A stretch of DNA of 39,031 nucleotides, taken from a virus. The stretch lies in the UHGV virus genome UHGV-0112814. One strand, given 5' to 3'. The notes beneath the pieces are model-generated. The model ran no database searches and was not told the DNA's origin. It worked only from the letters and a program-made list of their open reading frames with translations. Positions 41 to 20,352 of the stretch are shown one piece after another (position 1 is the first letter of the stretch; each line of letters begins with the position of its first letter). The position numbers were made by a program, and so were the translations under genes.

Positions 41-85
41 GGGTAAAAAGTGGATAAAATAATTTTACCCACCGGATTTTTACCC
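41..85 (+). repeat. Cluster of GGGTAAAA-type motifs (two direct at 41..49 and 52..60, two inverted ttttaccc at 63..70 and 78..85) directly upstream of the int start codon
   Basis: Same motif family as at the other window end; typical of integrase arm-type binding sites. Confidence 0.5.
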
Positions 86-1467
86 ATGCTCACCGTTAAG
101 CAGATTGAAGCAGCAAAGCCGAAAGAAAAACCATACCGCCTTCTCGATGGTAATGGCCTGTACCTTTATGTCCCTGTATCAGGGAAAAAGGTATGGCAGC
201 TTCGCTACAAGATTGACGGTAAGGAGAAAATCCTGACCGTAGGAAAATATCCGCTAATGACTTTGCAGGAAGCAAGAGATAAAGCATGGACCGCGAGGAA
301 AGACATCTCGGTTGGCATCGATCCGGTAAAAGCGAAAAAGGCTTCGTCTAACAACAATTCCTTTAGTGCCATTTACAAGGAATGGTACGAGCACAAGAAG
401 CAAGTCTGGTCAGTAGGCTATGCAACTGAACTTGCCAAAATGTTTGATGACGACATTTTACCCATCATCGGCGGTCTTGAGATTCAGGATATTGAGCCGA
501 TGCAACTGCTGGAAGTAATCCGCAGATTTGAAGATCGCGGTGCAATGGAGCGAGCAAATAAAGCCCGCAGAAGATGCGGCGAGGTTTTCCGTTACGCTAT
601 TGTCACCGGCAGGGCTAAATATAACCCGGCACCTGACCTTGCAGACGCCATGAAAGGATACCGCAAGAAGAACTTCCCGTTTCTTCCTGCAGACCAGATC
701 CCGGCATTCAACAAAGCACTGGCAACATTTTCAGGAAGTATCGTATCGCTCATTGCGACCAAAGTTTTACGCTACACAGCCCTAAGAACGAAAGAGCTTC
801 GCTCCATGCAATGGAAGAACGTCGATTTTGAAAACAGGATTATCACCATCGACGCCAGTGTGATGAAGGGACGCAAAATTCATGTGGTTCCTATGTCAGA
901 CCGTTTCTTCCTGCAGACCAGATCCCGGCATTCAACAAAGCACTGGCAACATTTTCAGGAAGTATCGTATCGCTCATTGCGACCAAAGTTTTACGCTACA
1001 CAGCCCTAAGAACGAAAGAGCTTCGCTCCATGCAATGGAAGAACGTCGATTTTGAAAACAGGATTATCACCATCGACGCCAGTGTGATGAAGGGACGCAA
1101 AATTCATGTGGTTCCTATGTCAGACCAGGTGGTTGAACTTCTCACTACGCTAAGCTCAATCACCAAACCAGTATCAGAGTTTGTTTTTGCCGGGCGCAAC
1201 GATAAGAAGAAGCCAATCTGCGAGAACGCGGTACTGCTTGTGATCAAACAAATCGGCTATGAGGGTCTGGAAAGCGGTCACGGATTCAGGCATGAATTCA
1301 GCACGATTATGAACGAGCACGAATGGCCTGCTGATGCTATTGAAGTGCAACTGGCACATGCCAACGGCGGATCTGTGCGCGGGATTTACAACCATGCTCA
1401 GTATCTCGATAAGCGCAGAGAAATGATGCAGTGGTGGGCGGACTGGCTTGATGGGAAGGCGGGCTAA
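86..1467 (+). pseudogene. int: P4/IntS-type tyrosine integrase, reading frame broken by an internal 224-bp tandem duplication (N-terminal fragment ends at stop 1007-1009; C-terminal fragment resumes as ORF 1030..1467)
   Basis: ORF 50..1009 and ORF 1030..1467 share the peptide MQWKNVDFENRIITIDASVMKGRKIHVVPMSD; the second ORF continues into a tyrosine-recombinase C-terminus (HGFRHEF ... GIYNHAQY). ATG at 86 (MLTVKQIEAAKP) preferred over the track start at 50. 224 is not a multiple of 3, so the frame shifts. Confidence 0.85.
677..1124 (+). repeat. Perfect direct tandem duplication, 2 x 224 bp (copy 1 677..900, copy 2 901..1124), with 2-bp CC microhomology at the junction
   Basis: The string ccgtttcttcctgcagaccagatcccggc ... 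gttcctatgtcaga occurs twice back to back, identical by eye. Confidence 0.9.
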
Positions 1468-2855: not shown

Positions 2856-5126
2856 TTACAAGCAAGCAGTTAACGGGAATGCAGTGTCTCCAATGTTAAG
2901 GACGACAGCAGCGATATCAATAGCAAAAACAGTACCGACAGGAAGGTTAATATTGACAATAACCTTTTCTTGTGTATCTAGAGAAGCACCTGGCGACATT
3001 TGGGCCACCCTGAAGTGAATAAACCTTCTGTAAAAATTCCCATCGTTTGGTATTGATACTACATTGTCACCCGAGCTTGCAAACCCTCCATTAACAGAAA
3101 CTACTGTTCCAGTGATGCCGCCAACTCCGCCAGCAGTAAACGTTTTAGCATAAAAAGAAAGGCACACATTACACCCCTGAATTTTGGCAGGAGAGATATC
3201 TAATTCAAATTGTAGCTGAAGATATGTTTGATCTGTAGCAGGTGATGTGCATAGTAACTGGAATGCATTTCTTTGCATATCTAATCGGTTTCGCTCATAT
3301 CCTCCTGCTGCAGTATTATTAGTAGTCCTTTTAGTTAGAGTAAAGCTACCTCCGGTTCCATCTGAAACGGCAGTCAACCCGCTTATTCCGAAATTACTAT
3401 TTATAGGAGCAGCGCCAACATATCCATTAATAATATCTGATGCATCCGAAATCTTCACTAGATTTTTTACTCTGCTTTTATATGAAGGCTTGTAAACAGA
3501 TGCGTACTCAGGCTCAATAAGATATCCAATATTATTTAAATTACCATCGTATCTAATAGTGCCAATATCCCAGTTTTTGTGACCAATAATTTCAGGAGAT
3601 TCAATTAACGGGTAGTGATAATGCACAAATGTTGCTTTATCAATAGACAAATCCTCTAATGCTAAATTATTTCCAAATATGAAATATCTACTTACGTGTT
3701 CAGTATTACCCATATTTGCATAACTACCATTTACTGTTAATCTTTTTACAAATGTAGATGCACCATTATCAACCATTCCGGCACCGCCATCGGCCTTACT
3801 GCCTGTAAAATATGGGTCATCATCATATGATAGCTGGATGCATTTAATTACCTCCCCTTCCTCTGGGCCAAATGGTTTCTCTGAGTAGAAATTTAGAAGT
3901 GTTACATCTGCACAACCAGCTGAAATGATAACATCAGTAAGCATGCCATTGTTTGCTCCTCCTTCAATAACCGTGCGCCAACCGCTAATCCAGTAAGCTA
4001 TCCCGCCACGCGACCAGCCAACACCTTCCACCTTATTGTTTGTTGCCGTCAACAATGTACTCCAAAGATCAACAACTTTACCAAGAACATGATCTTCGTA
4101 GTAACCAGGGCAGCGCACAAAGTTTCGTGTATTCACCCTATCAGCTATGAAATCGGTATGGGCCTCGAACAAGCAATCCCTTACCGATACCCTCCAGTTG
4201 TTAAATTCGGCATTAACAGCCCAGGAGCCATCTCCGCCAAACGCACGGAATTCGCAATTAGATACATCGCAATAAGTTACCCAATGAGCAAAATTTATTG
4301 CATATCCTGATGTTGCCCCCCCCTTAAAAACAGCACCTTCAATACTGTAGTGCTTATTAAACGGGGTCTTACCAGTAGCTCCGTTGTAGTCTCCGCTTAG
4401 ATCATATGGGCCCATGTTAAAGGCGTTTCCTGAGCCTAAGTAATGGAATACAGTTCCTTCGCAGATAATTCTTACCGGTCTGGTGAAATGCATGTCTTTA
4501 GAATATGAGATTGTACCTGGTGGGAATAGCACTCCAACAGGAATTCCATCAGTATTAGGTATCGCGTTCACATACTCCACGAAAGCGTTGATCGCATCAG
4601 TAGAGTCAGTACCATCCATCTTTACACCAAAGTCCTGTGGTGTGATGAAATCCTGATTTTTATCGTGTTGCGTCCTGTGTATTGCACCAATCGCAGGGAG
4701 GTGAACACCAATCAGCGCATCACCCTTTGTATCGTCATCGATATAACTGCCATCTTGAGCAAGCTGGTCTTTGAAGTCAGGACCAAACTGATCAGGGTCA
4801 TACTTCAGCACGTTAGGGAAATAGAACTGCTGAGCACCGTACGCATCATAAACAGCCATAGAATGGCCTTGCACAGTTACGAACTTGGCAATCTGTCCGT
4901 TATATACGGGGTAACCAGCAGCGTTAATGATGATTGGTTGCGATACAGGAACGTGAGAGCCGTCTTCGTTCTCTACATAAACCTGAATCTGGTTTTCAGG
5001 ATTTACCGGGTCAGTGTCAATTTTACCGATATAAATTTTGCCATTGGCTACGGCTTTAAAAGAACGAGCCATAGTGAAGAGTTGCGAAGGCATGCTGACC
5101 ACAACATTTGCGGTGATATCTGACAT
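2856..5126 (-). CDS. Tailspike protein with P22-type N-terminal head-binding domain and a divergent receptor-binding body
   Basis: N-terminus [59 protein letters not shown] closely matches the P22 gp9 N-terminus. Start moved to ATG at 5126 (the track start at 5174 adds 16 aa). Confidence 0.9.
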
Positions 5127-5151
5127 TTCATTGCTCCAGACGAATGATATG

Positions 5152-5174
5152 ATGCAATCATGATGTGATTGCAT
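5152..5174. promoter_or_regulatory. Candidate operator: inverted repeat atgcaatca-tgatg-tgattgcat between the tailspike start and mnt
   Basis: Perfect 9-bp half-sites with a 5-bp spacer in the 120-bp divergent intergenic region. Confidence 0.4.
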
Positions 5175-5247
5175 ACCGAAATGGTACTATTGAGTATTTA
5201 TCCAGTAGGTTACGATGCCATTCCACCCAACTGGTGAGACATCAAGG

Positions 5248-5508
5248 ATGTACAGCAAATACGACGAGGCGCAGTTTCACTTGAGACTTCCGCATGAACT
5301 CCACGCGAAAATTAAGCAGCGTGCGAAGATGAATAACAGGTCGCTGAACTCAGAGATAATTGCAGCGATTGAAGAATCATTGGCTAAACAAAGCTCTGCA
5401 TCAGTTTACATTGACGATGCAGAGCGTATGGCAGAACAACAATCTGATATGGTTAAGAAAATTGTCTTTGATACGCTCAAGGAGCTATATAAAAAAGACA
5501 GCAACTAA
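5248..5508 (+). CDS. mnt: Mnt-like ribbon-helix-helix repressor
   Basis: FHLRLPHELHAKIKQRAKMNNRSLNSEII ... DDAERMAEQQSDMVKKIVFDTLKELYKK aligns with P22 Mnt; transcribed opposite to the late genes as in P22. Start ambiguous between 5215 and 5248. Confidence 0.8.
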   Translation: MYSKYDEAQFHLRLPHELHAKIKQRAKMNNRSLNSEIIAAIEESLAKQSSASVYIDDAERMAEQQSDMVKKIVFDTLKELYKKDSN

Positions 5509-5597
5509 CCATCCATTACGGAGGATTTATGCAAAGAGATATGATGAATATTGCATTCTACATATTTGGTTTTTGCACTTTCCTGGTGTTTGCAAAG

Positions 5598-7595
5598 CTA
5601 TTCTGACAACGCATCAGACTTAGCCCCCTGAGTCAGAGCGTTAATGGCCTTTTGTGCCTGCTGCATGGCTTTCTCGAACACTGTTGATCCGCGTGGGGTG
5701 TTTGCCATTCGGAGCATTGCATTTCTGAATGGCTCGCTCTCATAGGCGCGAGTAAGAAGTCCGTAGCTTACTGCTGCGCCAGTTGTTGCAGGGTTCATTG
5801 CCGTCCCATACCCAATAATGAACGGGATGGTTTGCTGCCCTGTTGGTGTTGTTACTGCCGCTTTTGCAGCCTGCTGCGTGGATTGAAGGTAGTTTTTCAA
5901 TCCTTTCAGATAAGCGGCTTCCTGACCTTTAAATGTGATGCCAGTCTGGTTTTGCAGGATGTTAAGCTGTCGAAGGAACTGGTCAGGGGAACCACCTGAT
6001 TTCTCCATCGCCTTTCCAATGATGCCATTGCGCATTTGCGCCCTGCCAACACGACCAACTGAGTTATACAGCGTCTTAATTTCCGATTTGTTCTTGCTGA
6101 ATAGCATGTTGTTGACAACTTCCGGCGTCAGGTCGCCTTTCATGAGAACATTCTTCAGCCTTGTATTCTTTAATTTCGCCGCTTCGTCAGCGTAGACGGC
6201 ATTGGCCTGCTGATATTTACGGAGAGTATCGTTGCCAAGATTCTGACCAATGGCACCATTGATATCGTCTGTCATCGCCTTGTAAACGCGCTGAATGGCA
6301 GCATCGGAACGGTTTGGTAACACTGGTCGTTCCCCCTTCACGTCCATTCTGAACTGGCTGCGCAGATCGCTTAATTGCTTCAAGTCCAGATTTACCGGAC
6401 CATCAGGACCAGCATTGCGAATAAGCTCATCACGATAGGATTGAAGTTTTGAAATCGTCTCGTTATCAGCGACCTTACCAAGCTTCTGCAGGTTAGATAT
6501 TTCTGTATCAATCTGCTGAATTGCTCGAGCAGGCTGGATATTGACTCCCGCCATTGCATTCTGAACCTGCTCAAGACGGTTCCCTGCAGCACGACGAATT
6601 CCTGATGTTTTCGCTTTAAGGCTGTCAATAACAACAGCTGGATCATACTCACAGAATTTATCAGCAAATCTCTGCACCAACTGGCTTCTCGCTTCCTGTT
6701 GCGTTGCTCTCATTCCGCTTGTGCCAGCCAGGGGGATATTTTCCGCTGTCGTCTGCGCCATTTTCCCGACGCGGGAAGTTGGTTGTAACAGGTCTGTGGT
6801 GTGCAGAGGGACTCCTTCACGCTCTGCAAATCTGATAGCCTGCTGCGCTTCTGGCGCAATAGCACCGCGAACGCCACGATAAGCAGCACCTAATCCACGT
6901 CCAGCAGCGTTAATAGCGCCGCCTGCCAGAACTCCAACACCTAAATCGGTAGCGAGTGCTTCCGCATCATCTTTCGCACTATTTACAGCAAGTGATCCAA
7001 CTGCGTTTTCTGCTAGAAGGCGAGTTGCCCCATGAGCAATTCGACCAGCAAGTGTTGGTGCCTGTACCGACGCTCTCTCAACGCCAGCAGGAGTGAGGTA
7101 AGGCAATGCTTCAGCAAATACCCTTCCCTCTGTCGTTTGTGGAGTCAGCGCACCTTGCTGAAGGCCAAAGTCCTGCTCTAATCCCTGCGTTGTTACTCGT
7201 GGTGCTGGTTGATATGTACCATCGCCAATGCCGAGTTTACCGCCAGCCCAAGCCGCCGCGCTTGTTACAGCATCGGCAACTGATGCAGGTATGTTTGCCA
7301 CGTTCACGCCAGCCTGCACCAGTCCACGACCAGTCTCTTTTACTGCTTCACCAAGATCAGGCATAAATCCATTTTGCTGTGGTTGTTGCTGTGCTACTGG
7401 TTGTTGTGTCTCCACTGGCTGCACAGATGGCAATGGATAGGCAGCATAGAAAGCTTGCTTAGCCTGCTCTGCATTTTCTCCGGCTTGCGGGGCCACGACT
7501 TCATTGAAGTATTGCTCCTGAGCCTGCGCTTTTTGTTCTGGTGCTAACGCCTGATACTGTGGAGAGGCGATAACATCTTTCCATGCTTTAGCCAT
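5598..7595 (-). CDS. DNA ejection/internal virion protein (P22 gp16-like)
   Basis: 665 aa; position and order (gp7-gp20-gp16 upstream of the tailspike) as in P22; Ala/Gln-rich. Confidence 0.7.
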   Translation of the reverse strand: MAKAWKDVIASPQYQALAPEQKAQAQEQYFNEVVAPQAGENAEQAKQAFYAAYPLPSVQPVETQQPVAQQQPQQNGFMPDLGEAVKETGRGLVQAGVNVANIPASVADAVTSAAAWAGGKLGIGDGTYQPAPRVTTQGLEQDFGLQQGALTPQTTEGRVFAEALPYLTPAGVERASVQAPTLAGRIAHGATRLLAENAVGSLAVNSAKDDAEALATDLGVGVLAGGAINAAGRGLGAAYRGVRGAIAPEAQQAIRFAEREGVPLHTTDLLQPTSRVGKMAQTTAENIPLAGTSGMRATQQEARSQLVQRFADKFCEYDPAVVIDSLKAKTSGIRRAAGNRLEQVQNAMAGVNIQPARAIQQIDTEISNLQKLGKVADNETISKLQSYRDELIRNAGPDGPVNLDLKQLSDLRSQFRMDVKGERPVLPNRSDAAIQRVYKAMTDDINGAIGQNLGNDTLRKYQQANAVYADEAAKLKNTRLKNVLMKGDLTPEVVNNMLFSKNKSEIKTLYNSVGRVGRAQMRNGIIGKAMEKSGGSPDQFLRQLNILQNQTGITFKGQEAAYLKGLKNYLQSTQQAAKAAVTTPTGQQTIPFIIGYGTAMNPATTGAAVSYGLLTRAYESEPFRNAMLRMANTPRGSTVFEKAMQQAQKAINALTQGAKSDALSE

Positions 7596-12887: not shown

Positions 12888-14141
12888 TTACTGCCCGGCA
12901 ATAACGATGCCCGTATATTCAGGAACAAGTACAGAGCAACCGTACAGAGTGGTGAAACGAGCAGTGGTTACGCCTTTGATGTGGTCGAAGGCGTAAGACA
13001 TGATCAGCGTAGCGCCCTGCTCGGTGGTTGCCGTCATTACCTGTGGCCCCTGACCAGTTGGGAACGCCAGTTTGCCGTACATCAGTTCAACAGAACCATC
13101 AGCCCAGAACAGGTTAGCCGGTGCGGCATTTTTGTTGAGAATGGTGATTGCTGCGCTACTTGCCGCATTAGCATCAACGTTTGCATATGGACGGCTGGCG
13201 ACATCCGCGTTGTCAGGCGGCAGAATTTTCGGGGAGATAGTTACTGTCGTTCCGCTAACTGCCAGAACACGGAATACCTGCGGCTGCCCGGTGGTATCTT
13301 TGGTGATCTGGTGTACGGAATTCACCCCTGCGATGGTAAACGCATCGCCAACCTGCAAACCTTCAGCAGATACCGTAATGGTCCCCTGTCGGTTATCCAC
13401 TGGCATATCGTTAGCATCTTTCGCTTCAACCTTGTGCGCAGGTGCTGCTGCCAGCGTAATGGAAGTTGCTGTACCCTTCGGAACACGACCAGAAATATCG
13501 GTCTTGTAGCTATCAAAGGAAGCAACCGGAGGGATCTGCGCTTTTTCGTATGCTGTCAGGGTTGCGCCCTGAGCATAGGCACGGTGACCAAGCTCGCCAG
13601 CAAGGTCTTTGTAGTTGAAGGGGTTCCAGAAAGAGCGGCGGTTGATACCCTGTGGTACACCAATCGCCGTCATGGTGGCATCAATACCTGCCGCACAGTT
13701 CCACAAATCACGGCCCTGTGAACCAGTGGTTGAGTCAGCCATTGTGATCACGTTAGTAGCACGCTGCGTGACCATGGAAATCAGGTCAGAGTCAATCTGT
13801 GCAGCAAGGCGCATACCTGCGGCGCGACCAGCTTCAGTTTTATGTTCCGGGTCACGCATTTCACGCGCATCCAGAGTGTACAGAATGTTTTTCGGCTCCT
13901 TGAACACAGAAGGAACAAGGCGCTGAACCAGTGCTGTTGGCGTTTTGCTGCTGAGGTCGAGGCCTTCCTCAATATTCATGTGGTAATGCTGCGGACGATA
14001 CAGAACATCACCTGCTCGCTGCATTGCTGTATCACCGGGACGGAATTTTTTAGCGTTACGGGAAACTACGCAGGCGGCCTCAAATCCTTCAACGTAGTTT
14101 TCGAACATGATTTCAAGGTCTTTTGCTAATTGGTTAGCCAT
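12888..14141 (-). CDS. Major capsid (coat) protein, P22 gp5-like
   Basis: 417 aa, in coat position between scaffold and gp4; followed by attenuator hairpin. Confidence 0.85.
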   Translation of the reverse strand: MANQLAKDLEIMFENYVEGFEAACVVSRNAKKFRPGDTAMQRAGDVLYRPQHYHMNIEEGLDLSSKTPTALVQRLVPSVFKEPKNILYTLDAREMRDPEHKTEAGRAAGMRLAAQIDSDLISMVTQRATNVITMADSTTGSQGRDLWNCAAGIDATMTAIGVPQGINRRSFWNPFNYKDLAGELGHRAYAQGATLTAYEKAQIPPVASFDSYKTDISGRVPKGTATSITLAAAPAHKVEAKDANDMPVDNRQGTITVSAEGLQVGDAFTIAGVNSVHQITKDTTGQPQVFRVLAVSGTTVTISPKILPPDNADVASRPYANVDANAASSAAITILNKNAAPANLFWADGSVELMYGKLAFPTGQGPQVMTATTEQGATLIMSYAFDHIKGVTTARFTTLYGCSVLVPEYTGIVIAGQ

Positions 14142-19668: not shown

Positions 19669-20211
19669 TTAACTGGTGAGTCCGGGGATTACGGTTTGCC
19701 CGTGCTGTTCAAGGCGTTCAATTCTCGCCAGTAGCTGAGGCTTCTTAATTTTTCCCCAGCGATTGAGCAGACGACCTGACATGCTGGCAACATCCTTCTC
19801 TTTCATGTACTCCAGCATTACGGCATTTCTCTCTTCTTCAAATTGACGATGACCAACCTGAAGCATGGCGTACATCCAGTTAAATGCGTTGATGTAAGCA
19901 ATTTTGATACGCATTGCTTCTTTTTTGGTGTAGGACATAACCAAAAGCATCAACCCATCCTTACGGAGACGGTAGAATTTTTGCGGCTTACCATTCTGTA
20001 ACTCATTGTTTTTATAGCAAAGCTCAAAGTTGAGCTTTGTATCAAACTCAGGAGGGCAAGCTTCTATGGTTCGCTCAATGTCACGGACTACGTTCTTCGG
20101 CAGCTTTCCAAATGCTTTTGCCACCATAAAAGAATCTGTAACCGGATCGTTGTTTGCTACAAAAATTAGGTCTCTGAAATCTATATCGTTAACAACGGTT
20201 GGGTAGTTCAT
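19669..20211 (-). CDS. rha: Rha-family phage regulatory protein
   Basis: N-terminal region around NNDPVTDSFMVAKAFGKLPKNVVRDI is Rha-domain-like; start taken at MNYPTVV. Confidence 0.7.
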   Translation of the reverse strand: MNYPTVVNDIDFRDLIFVANNDPVTDSFMVAKAFGKLPKNVVRDIERTIEACPPEFDTKLNFELCYKNNELQNGKPQKFYRLRKDGLMLLVMSYTKKEAMRIKIAYINAFNWMYAMLQVGHRQFEEERNAVMLEYMKEKDVASMSGRLLNRWGKIKKPQLLARIERLEQHGQTVIPGLTS

Positions 20212-20352
20212 TGCGTCTTTACCTTTTAGAAAGTGAGCCTGTCTCACAGAAAAGCCGCCCGAGAGAGGTCGCCACCTATAACGGCATTTCTCAGGCTCGC
20301 TTACTGAAAGGCTCTCGTTAATATGCGCGTGAGATGCGCGTTTACTGCGGAC

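Follow-up and report, generated by a model that had tools for sequence, protein, structure and literature searches.

A probable reduced immunity-I region, with mnt, a predicted operator and an unannotated small gene, beside the tailspike gene of a P22-like phage

The interval between gene 16 and the tailspike gene of UHGV virus genome UHGV-0112814, a 39,031-nucleotide (nt) stretch of DNA (the window) that represents a P22-like (Lederbergvirus) phage genome in the orientation opposite to its late operon, encodes a homologue of the P22 repressor Mnt. On balance, we find it probable that these 480 bp are a reduced immunity-I (immI) region, or "ant moron," of a Lederbergvirus prophage, with four separate elements. 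This judgment is a joint one: the mnt product is predicted to be a functional tetrameric ribbon-helix-helix repressor, it would bind a dyad at 5172..5188 that abuts the -35 hexamer of the mnt promoter (Pmnt) as in P22, and a neighboring perfect palindrome would be the form that a conserved RNA hairpin of the tailspike leader takes in this lineage, not a protein site. Downstream of mnt lies a 25-codon open reading frame (ORF) that, judging from its substitution pattern, is a real, unannotated gene with a predicted single-pass hydrophobic peptide as its product. The mnt-only arrangement itself is already known and common; what the window cassette adds is a third class of operator specificity. 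The main features are as follows.

5248..5508, plus strand: mnt, 86 amino acids (aa); ribbon-helix-helix followed by a C-terminal tetramerization coiled coil; recognition strand QFHLRL.
5172..5188, no strand assigned: predicted Mnt operator (homologue of P22 Omnt); dyad TACC (5174..5177), N5, GGTA (5183..5186), centered on 5180.
5190..5216, plus strand: putative Pmnt, by homology with the annotated P22 Pmnt; -35 TTGAGT (5190..5195), -10 TACGAT (5211..5216).
5152..5174, minus strand: 9-5-9 palindrome, candidate tailspike mRNA leader hairpin; sense RNA AUGCAAUCA-CAUCA-UGAUUGCAU, 3' end 25 nt before the AUG.
5529..5606, plus strand: small ORF of 25 codons, MQRDMMNIAFYIFGFCTFLVFAKLF; Shine-Dalgarno (SD) sequence GGAGG at 5520..5524; 20 nt past the mnt stop codon.

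An mnt gene without arc or ant

Two plus-strand ORFs, of 86 codons (5248..5508) and 25 codons (5529..5606), occupy the interval between gp16 and the tailspike, and the first is separated from the tailspike gene by a 121-nt intergenic region. The original prediction that the larger one encodes a Mnt homologue divergent from the tailspike is borne out by domain searches. Its N terminus is an Arc-type ribbon-helix-helix (Pfam PF03869 Arc, 7.5e-15, residues 7-49), its C terminus is the Mnt coiled coil (Pfam PF11423 Repressor_Mnt, 3.4e-14, residues 57-82; Protein Data Bank (PDB) entry 1qey, 1.7e-08), and PDB entry 1mnt matches with 3.4e-19 over aligned residues 6-79. The gene lies between gene 16 and the tailspike and is transcribed against the late operon. 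The start codon used by RefSeq in near-identical Escherichia coli prophages is that of the 5248..5508 ORF. A longer version starting at 5215 was discarded: its ATG lies inside the Pmnt -10, relatives show non-conservative variation in the extension or have it closed, and the RefSeq start is 5248.

The absence of arc and ant, also part of the original prediction, held up when the window was searched for the Arc, Ant and SieA proteins of P22 and four other antirepressor-type proteins (tblastn, nothing below E = 0.2), and Pfam scans of 30 further ORFs in the window found no ANT, Bro-N or KilAC domain. For the sar antisense RNA, there is no Rfam match above noise in 4800..5900, nor is there an arc-ant junction for it to overlap. 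The sole related domain match is a Rha-family gene (Phage_pRha + ORF11CD3) at 19669..20247 on the minus strand, between the lysis and terminase genes in the late region; a Mnt-type operator was not found near it, and the P22-like phage BTP1 also has a Rha-family gene in its late region.

The window resembles P22 immI in several respects. Both encode an Arc-type ribbon-helix-helix fused to a Mnt coiled coil, the two Mnt proteins being 49% identical, and in both mnt sits between gene 16 and gene 9 in the same orientation, with a dyad operator abutting the Pmnt -35. In contrast to P22, the window has no arc, ant, sar or Tant, its recognition strand reads QFHLRL instead of HFNFRM, its operator TACC-N5-GGTA instead of GGTCCAC-N-GTGGACC, the hexamers of the ant promoter (Pant) are degenerate and the Pmnt spacer is 15 nt.

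Although this Mnt lacks an arc/ant partner, the word "orphan" used for it in the original prediction should not be taken to mean rare. The gene 16-gene 9 interval was named the "ant moron" by Villafane et al. (2008, PMC2629481), and mnt without arc/ant between gene 16 and the tailspike has been published for ST64T, ST104, L and others (PMC2629481, PMC8022706). The annotated records of L, ST160, Gally, VSe13 and JEP4 show mnt beside the tailspike, near-identical DNA is found in phages IME10 (where mnt is unannotated), Sf101 (where it is annotated "partition protein ATPase") and ECO26.1, and the window version of the module is present in 366 of 5426 complete E. coli genomes, in which RefSeq names the 86-aa product "Arc family DNA-binding protein." ST64T, ST104, L, ST160, SE1 and Gally share with the window the order tailspike, hairpin, operator, Pmnt, mnt and the lack of arc/ant. 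They differ from it in having a QFNLRLP Mnt, an AGACCAC-N-GTGGTCT operator and a P22-type GC-rich leader hairpin. CUS-3, which has two mnt genes and an ant without arc, was set aside as too different for comparison.

Selection on mnt

Substitution rates indicate that mnt is under strong purifying selection and is not decaying. Over residues 1-50, among relatives without arc and ant, the ratio of nonsynonymous to synonymous substitution rates (dN/dS) is 0.11 between the window and Escherichia sp. E1V33, 0.01 between VSe13 and JEP4, and 0.05-0.09 between genera, where dS is near saturation. Intact mnt, operator and Pmnt are retained in Escherichia, Shigella, Salmonella, Buttiauxella and Serratia.

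These values bear on the idea that mnt is a decaying remnant of a complete immI without present function, which was left open for phage L by Zaworski et al. (2020, PMC8022706). The loss of arc, ant and sar and of the Pant consensus fits this idea, as does one Citrobacter copy that is a pseudogene, but a dN/dS of 0.01-0.11 over the DNA-binding half, a module that is intact across five genera and found in 366 of 5426 E. coli genomes, and an operator and protein that co-vary (see below) make it very improbable. The Citrobacter locus in question (L012, 4001..4015) has a nonsense codon at position 5 of mnt and an operator in which GGTA has become AGTA; it is the sole broken operator among the genome-derived relatives.

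Operator class follows the Mnt recognition strand

The annotated Omnt of P22 is found 52-74 nt upstream of the mnt start, continues into the Pmnt -35 and reads AGGTCCACCGTGGACCT and then ATTGAGA. The equivalent position of the window reads ATACCGAAATGGTACT and then ATTGAGT, and this is where the TACC-N5-GGTA dyad is found. The dyad occurs once in the window. A search of the window for a second operator, as expected of a distant target, gave none: one match with two mismatches falls in the coat gene, with GGTA broken, and is at chance level. In relatives picked by Mnt similarity alone (VSe13, JEP4, E1V33, Buttiauxella and Serratia), TACC-N5-GGTA is retained while the central 5 bp and the flanks differ, and in the Buttiauxella metagenome-assembled genome the operator is a perfect GTACC-N5-GGTAC. 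Among 80 IMG/VR loci whose Mnt is 95-100% identical, the core half-site is changed, from TACC to TACA, in only two (L025 and L092).

We then scanned IMG/VR for three operator types and read the neighboring ORFs, with the following outcome.

Operator GGTCCACnGTGGACC (GGTCCAC class): recognition strand HFNFRMP; 67 loci; an arc-like gene on the other side in 65.
Operator AGACCACnGTGGTCT (AGACCAC class): recognition strand QFNLRLP; 39 loci; the tailspike on the other side in 39 L-type loci (38 QFNLRLP, 1 QFNLRMS).
Operator TACC-N5-GGTAC: recognition strand QFHLRL followed by P, T or S; 105 loci; the tailspike on the other side in 83, an arc-like gene in 0.

Operator class and recognition-strand class correspond one to one in about 250 loci, and a divergent Mnt starting MEELETQFHLRLP also adjoins a TACC-type operator. 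This covariation, together with the position of the dyad, suggests that Mnt binds at 5172..5188.

Three complete mnt-arc(-ant) modules in IMG/VR (L220, L273 and L284) have the operator TAAGACCACGGTGGTCT, which is that of the orphan Mnt of L, ST64T and ST160. The two longer modules with the AGACCAC operator, L273 and L284, show a P22-type ant homologue. The orphan L-type Mnt proteins could repress phages of this kind in trans.

The palindrome as a tailspike leader hairpin

The perfect 9-5-9 inverted repeat reported in the original prediction is exact: ATGCAATCA and TGATTGCAT form its arms at 5152..5160 and 5166..5174. When the 121-nt intergenic region was shuffled 5000 times, arms of at least 9 arose in 13 cases, and there are four such repeats across the whole 39 kb. 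Its reading as the site of Mnt is the part that did not survive. That reading, in which Mnt bound to the palindrome directly represses the tailspike, can point to a perfect repeat that is improbable by chance, to its location 22-48 nt upstream of the tailspike AUG and to the single base that its right arm shares with the predicted operator. Nevertheless, the palindrome is not likely to be a Mnt site because relatives with the same recognition strand (..EAQFHLRL..; VSe13, JEP4, Buttiauxella and Serratia) lack it and have a different GC-rich hairpin in its place, while all keep TACC-N5-GGTA. Moreover, no Omnt class is related to it in arm spacing or sequence, hairpins stand at this position in phages without mnt, and the form seen most often in E. 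coli is imperfect as DNA. We give direct repression through the palindrome hardly any credence.

The palindrome instead evolves like a stem in tailspike-sense RNA. The perfect version is a minority form: most relatives have ATGCAACCA...TGATTGCAT, which contains a C·A mismatch as DNA and pairs, as U·G, only in the sense RNA. In two loci (L047 and L050) the same pair is fully compensated to C-G, and the E1V33 hairpin shows a double change, on both sides, from G-C to U-A. The sense RNA of the window hairpin folds with -9.6 kcal/mol (z-score = -3.2). VSe13, JEP4, L and P22 have no 9-5-9 palindrome, and at the same distance from the tailspike start their tailspike-sense RNA contains the GC-rich hairpin CCGUAGC-CAY-GCUGCGG. 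This position holds hairpins of unrelated sequence in P22, L, epsilon34, HK620, Sf6 and BTP1, three of which (HK620, Sf6, with CCGGACA...UGUCCGG, and BTP1) carry a leader hairpin without having mnt.

In a set of 62 distinct leaders, 21-28 nt separate the 3' end of the stem from the AUG, the modes of this distance being 25 and 27 nt. The sense RNA is more stable than the antisense RNA in 55 of the 62 (mean -9.8 vs -7.5 kcal/mol; Wilcoxon p = 1.7e-10, a value that overstates independence because the leaders are related). Of the cells in the P22-type hairpin family, 97.4% pair, vs at most 56% with slid partners, and RNAalifold and an independent pair count give the same six pairs. Two neighboring pairs of this family alternate, being either G-C with U·G or G·U with C-G, and one pair occurs as G-C, A-U and U-A. 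Two other readings of the palindrome were rejected: as an intrinsic terminator, since the stem is AT-rich and no T-run follows it on either strand, and as a repeated protein site, since the window holds no other copy within three mismatches. What the hairpin does is a matter for speculation; it may stabilize, process or define the 5' end of the tailspike mRNA, downstream of a stretch that would be antisense in the lysogen.

Pmnt is kept and the Pant consensus is lost

The TTGnnn and TAnnAT hexamers of Pmnt are retained in all lineages, with unrelated spacers: TTGAGA-17-TATCAT in P22, TTGTGG-17-TATGAT in L, TTGTTG-17-TACGAT in VSe13 and TTGAGT-15-TACGAT in the window. On the opposite strand lies Pant, the strong leftward promoter that Mnt is known to repress in P22, where it is TTGACA-17-TATATT and is overlapped by Omnt. 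The Pant -35 is TTGACA in full modules (P22, L273 and L284) and ATGGCA or TCGGCA in orphan modules, in which the -10 equivalents (TAAATA, TATATC and TGCATC) are missing the usual final T. In the window the equivalent hexamers are ATGGCA and TAAATA at 15-nt spacing, and a promoter scan calls nothing on that strand. By this comparison, none of the orphan modules examined has retained the Pant consensus, while the operator and Pmnt persist.

Two further stems lie in the region.

5214..5243, no strand assigned: second conserved stem, from the Pmnt -10 to the mnt SD; GATGCC (5214..5219) and GGCATC (5238..5243), with inner CACC/GGTG.
5385..5425, minus strand: terminator-like hairpin within mnt, late-sense; GCUCUGCAUC-N13-GAUGCAGAGC and then UUUGUUUA; 10-bp perfect stem.

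The right arm of the second stem is GACATC in the window, a G to A change. Its inner arms have been replaced compensatorily in L (CACTT/AAGTG) and in Buttiauxella (GTCC/GGAC), and in an alignment of 13 diverse relatives its consensus fold is -11.5 on the late-sense strand vs -7.1 on the mnt-sense strand (alifold). The terminator-like hairpin is kept across the window lineage, including G·U variants that alter a Mnt residue (S to N, S to P), and is degraded in E1V33; it may substitute for the terminators annotated at the 3' end of mnt in L, epsilon34 and HK620.

A conserved 25-codon ORF downstream of mnt

The 25-aa hydrophobic ORF that had been proposed at 5529..5606, with a ribosome-binding site and converging on gp16 by 9 nt, was recovered at these coordinates with its GGAGG, and its 3' end overlaps the stop end of gp16 by 9 nt. 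In members of the window lineage, 19-20 nt separate the mnt stop codon from the start of the ORF. Homologous peptides are encoded in other phages, some of which have no mnt.

Window: MQRDMMNIAFYIFGFCTFLVFAKLF
Sf6 (no mnt): MQRDLLNIAFYIVGFCTFLVFAKLF
L: MNRDLLNFAFLIFGIVVGRLLFA
BTP1 (no mnt): MERDLLNFVFLIFGLVVGKLLFA

Further variants are present in IME10, E1V33 and Gally, with the same start context and abutting the 3' end of gene 16. A tblastn search recovers the ORF from 38 phage records; each is a Lederbergvirus, and in each the ORF lies beneath the end of the gene 16 homologue. The ratio of nonsynonymous to synonymous differences per site (pN/pS) is 0.16-0.30 in all nine full-length pairs and 0.16-0.46 over all pairs, which supports a real gene. 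Between L and BTP1 there are nine synonymous changes, including AGA to CGT for Arg. In the other frames of the region this signal is missing or stop codons are present. From residue 5 to the end, the peptides have a hydrophobic core with a mean Kyte-Doolittle value of 1.8-2.35.

The gene has no coding-sequence annotation of its own in the records opened (Sf6, L, IME10, Gally and BTP1), and an exact look-up of five peptide variants found none of them among about 15 billion predicted proteins. It goes with the L/Sf6-type gp16 and is missing where an Sf101-type gp16 replaces that type. In Sf6 (locus L095, 1650..1745) and BTP1 (L217, 14014..14082), the unannotated ORF lies in the short interval that separates gene 16 from the tailspike; both phages are described as without an ant moron, yet both carry the 23-25-codon ORF. 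It is damaged in two close relatives, one with CTG for ATG (L017) and one with unrelated sequence after the SD (L054). A toxin-antitoxin pair formed by mnt and the small ORF was rejected, the ORF being found without mnt in Sf6 and BTP1, and mnt without the ORF in Sf101, VSe13 and JEP4.

A possible link to superinfection exclusion

The BTP1 copy of the small ORF falls within a published exclusion determinant. STnc6030 is a prophage-expressed 786-nt transcript (D23580 403942..404727), antisense to the tailspike gene's 5' end and the 3' end of gene 16; when expressed from a plasmid, it confers total immunity to BTP1 and leaves induction unaffected (Owen et al. 2020, PMC7067206). Four single-nucleotide polymorphisms (SNPs) that escape it lie in 404041..404078, and all change the gp16 protein (PMC7067206). 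The authors ruled out only ORFs of more than 60 aa (PMC7067206), and a 2025 review still treats STnc6030 as an antisense RNA. The BTP1 small ORF (record 14014..14082, equivalent to D23580 404253..404321) is inside STnc6030 and has a GGAGG SD, and the escape SNPs fall in residues 583-595 of BTP1 gp16.

A second exclusion system also involves gp16. P22 mutations that escape SieA change gp16 at G532W and P546S (Leavitt et al. 2024, PMC10883804). In our gp16 alignment, P22 G532 and P546 align with BTP1 G576 and V589, which places P546 inside the 583-595 segment. Moreover, sieA occupies in P22 the same genomic slot as the small ORF, converging on the 3' end of gene 16. SieA is a prophage-expressed inner-membrane protein. 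Unlike the small-ORF peptide, with 23-25 aa and one hydrophobic stretch, it has 164 aa and several membrane segments, and the two share no sequence similarity (P22 SieA against the window, best E = 4.9 or worse by tblastn).

The window itself has points in common with the STnc6030 locus. In BTP1, the transcript runs antisense from the tailspike 5' region into an L/Sf6-type gene 16 3' end and contains a homologous small ORF, and the predicted Pmnt transcript of the window would span the same ground. The differences are that BTP1 has no mnt, that STnc6030 starts inside the tailspike gene and that it has been described as a non-coding antisense RNA.

We put forward, as a tentative proposal that we hold more likely wrong than right, that the 23-25-codon ORFs are an unrecognized family of miniature superinfection-exclusion membrane peptides acting, like SieA, on incoming gp16, that STnc6030 is the mRNA for one of them and that in the window lineage the orphan Mnt persists as the autoregulated driver of a prophage-expressed mnt-peptide operon. 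If the peptide blocks the entry of DNA, the lack of an effect on induction would be accounted for. Against this, the overlap of the SNPs with a SieA-escape residue could be chance (about 1 in 8), finding four of four SNPs non-synonymous is unremarkable, and classical genetics describes phage L as without exclusion systems.

What Mnt might do in a module without ant

In the mechanism that we favor, Mnt at the 5172..5188 dyad would autoregulate Pmnt. The prophage would express a transcript running from Pmnt through mnt into the 25-codon ORF, antisense to the late message in the stretch from gene 16 to the tailspike. Mnt would also silence residual leftward initiation, at most a weak start directed toward the tailspike. 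The leader hairpin would be a separate element, in the tailspike mRNA, and the peptide gene travels with the L/Sf6-type gene 16. The analysis shows homology, selection, covariation of operator and protein, and RNA-type covariation. Mnt binding, the activity of the promoters, the direction in which autoregulation works, a shared transcript for mnt and the small ORF, and the role of the peptide are deduced from sequence.

Several points weigh against this mechanism. An autoregulatory loop alone fails to explain why mnt is retained. A terminator follows mnt in L and ST64T, so driving the small ORF cannot be a general role of Mnt; in L, unlike the window with its 20-nt gap, a terminator and orf62 stand between mnt and the small ORF. 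The operator and promoters were assigned through homology and covariation. The loci in the operator comparison were sampled by operator pattern, so that it tests protein class given the operator and not operator conservation, and many of the sequences are closely related, so that the shuffle and Wilcoxon figures overstate independence. The Pmnt spacer is 15 nt throughout the E. coli lineage and 17 nt in most others, which should weaken the promoter, and a generic sigma-70 promoter and terminator scan of 4900..5900 did no better than on shuffled sequence and did not call Pmnt.

The original prediction suggested that Mnt may regulate the tailspike or late-operon readthrough rather than ant. A role at the tailspike junction, already raised by Villafane et al. 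(2008, PMC2629481), is reasonable; direct control of a tailspike promoter is doubtful because the Pant hexamers are lost in every orphan module examined. One version of a junction role is dose control, in which Mnt at its operator, or transcription from Pmnt against the late operon, limits the late transcripts entering the tailspike gene. For P22, an effect of the moron on tailspike levels was reported (Adams et al. 1985, as summarized in PMC2629481). A late-sense transcript heading for the tailspike crosses the operator, the two conserved late-sense hairpins and the terminator-like hairpin, and the window-type module is beside the tailspike wherever the neighbor is identifiable (83 of 105 loci). 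Even so, a roadblock lacks direct support, and Q-type antiterminated polymerase usually passes obstacles. A lower tailspike yield looks costly, and Pant, degenerate in the window, may be needed for the P22 effect. We regard dose control as unlikely, if less so than the alternative that follows.

The other alternative is immunity in trans, with Mnt repressing the Pant of incoming arc-ant relatives that have the same type of operator and so shielding the lysogen from antirepressor-driven induction. This is the established job of Mnt against superinfecting P22, and it is plausible for the L-type class, for which the complete modules described above (L220, L273 and L284) have the exact operator. 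For the operator type of the window, however, none of the 105 Mnt-linked IMG/VR loci has an arc-like neighbor, and a composite pattern of the window operator with a consensus Pant -35 gave nine matches, all at chance level. A purely trans role would, moreover, not require that an operator be retained in cis. For the window, we consider such a role improbable.

Neighboring genes

The flanking late genes gp7, gp20, gp16 and the tailspike are all on the minus strand in the ORF list. The two nearest are as follows.

2856..5126, minus strand: tailspike gene (ORF list and sequence); P22-type head-binding N terminus; SD GGAG at 5137..5134.
5598..7595, minus strand: gene 16 homologue (ejection/DNA-transfer protein) of the L/Sf6/BTP1 type (ORF list; alignment with BTP1, L and P22 gp16).

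The DNA encoding the tailspike N terminus matches the tailspike genes of Sf6, HK620 and others. At the other end of the window, the integrase is split into ORFs 50..1009 and 1030..1467, both on the plus strand. The first holds the arm-binding and central domains and positions 2-75 of the catalytic domain, and the second positions 44-170 of the catalytic domain. This may reflect a disrupted int, perhaps in a defective prophage, or a sequencing error.

Implications

The function of Mnt in phages without ant has been a question in the P22 literature since at least 2008, and it is narrowed here by selection on mnt, by a named operator and by a decayed Pant. The predicted operator can be given to the base and defines the third specificity class; together, the three operator classes are a natural data set for DNA recognition by ribbon-helix-helix proteins. 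Since a hairpin precedes every P22-like tailspike gene examined, the leader points to post-transcriptional handling of the one late gene located downstream of prophage-expressed antisense transcription. Finally, a conserved and never-annotated micro-gene within a published exclusion "antisense RNA" would, if the exclusion-peptide proposal is true, offer a simple alternative mechanism for that exclusion.

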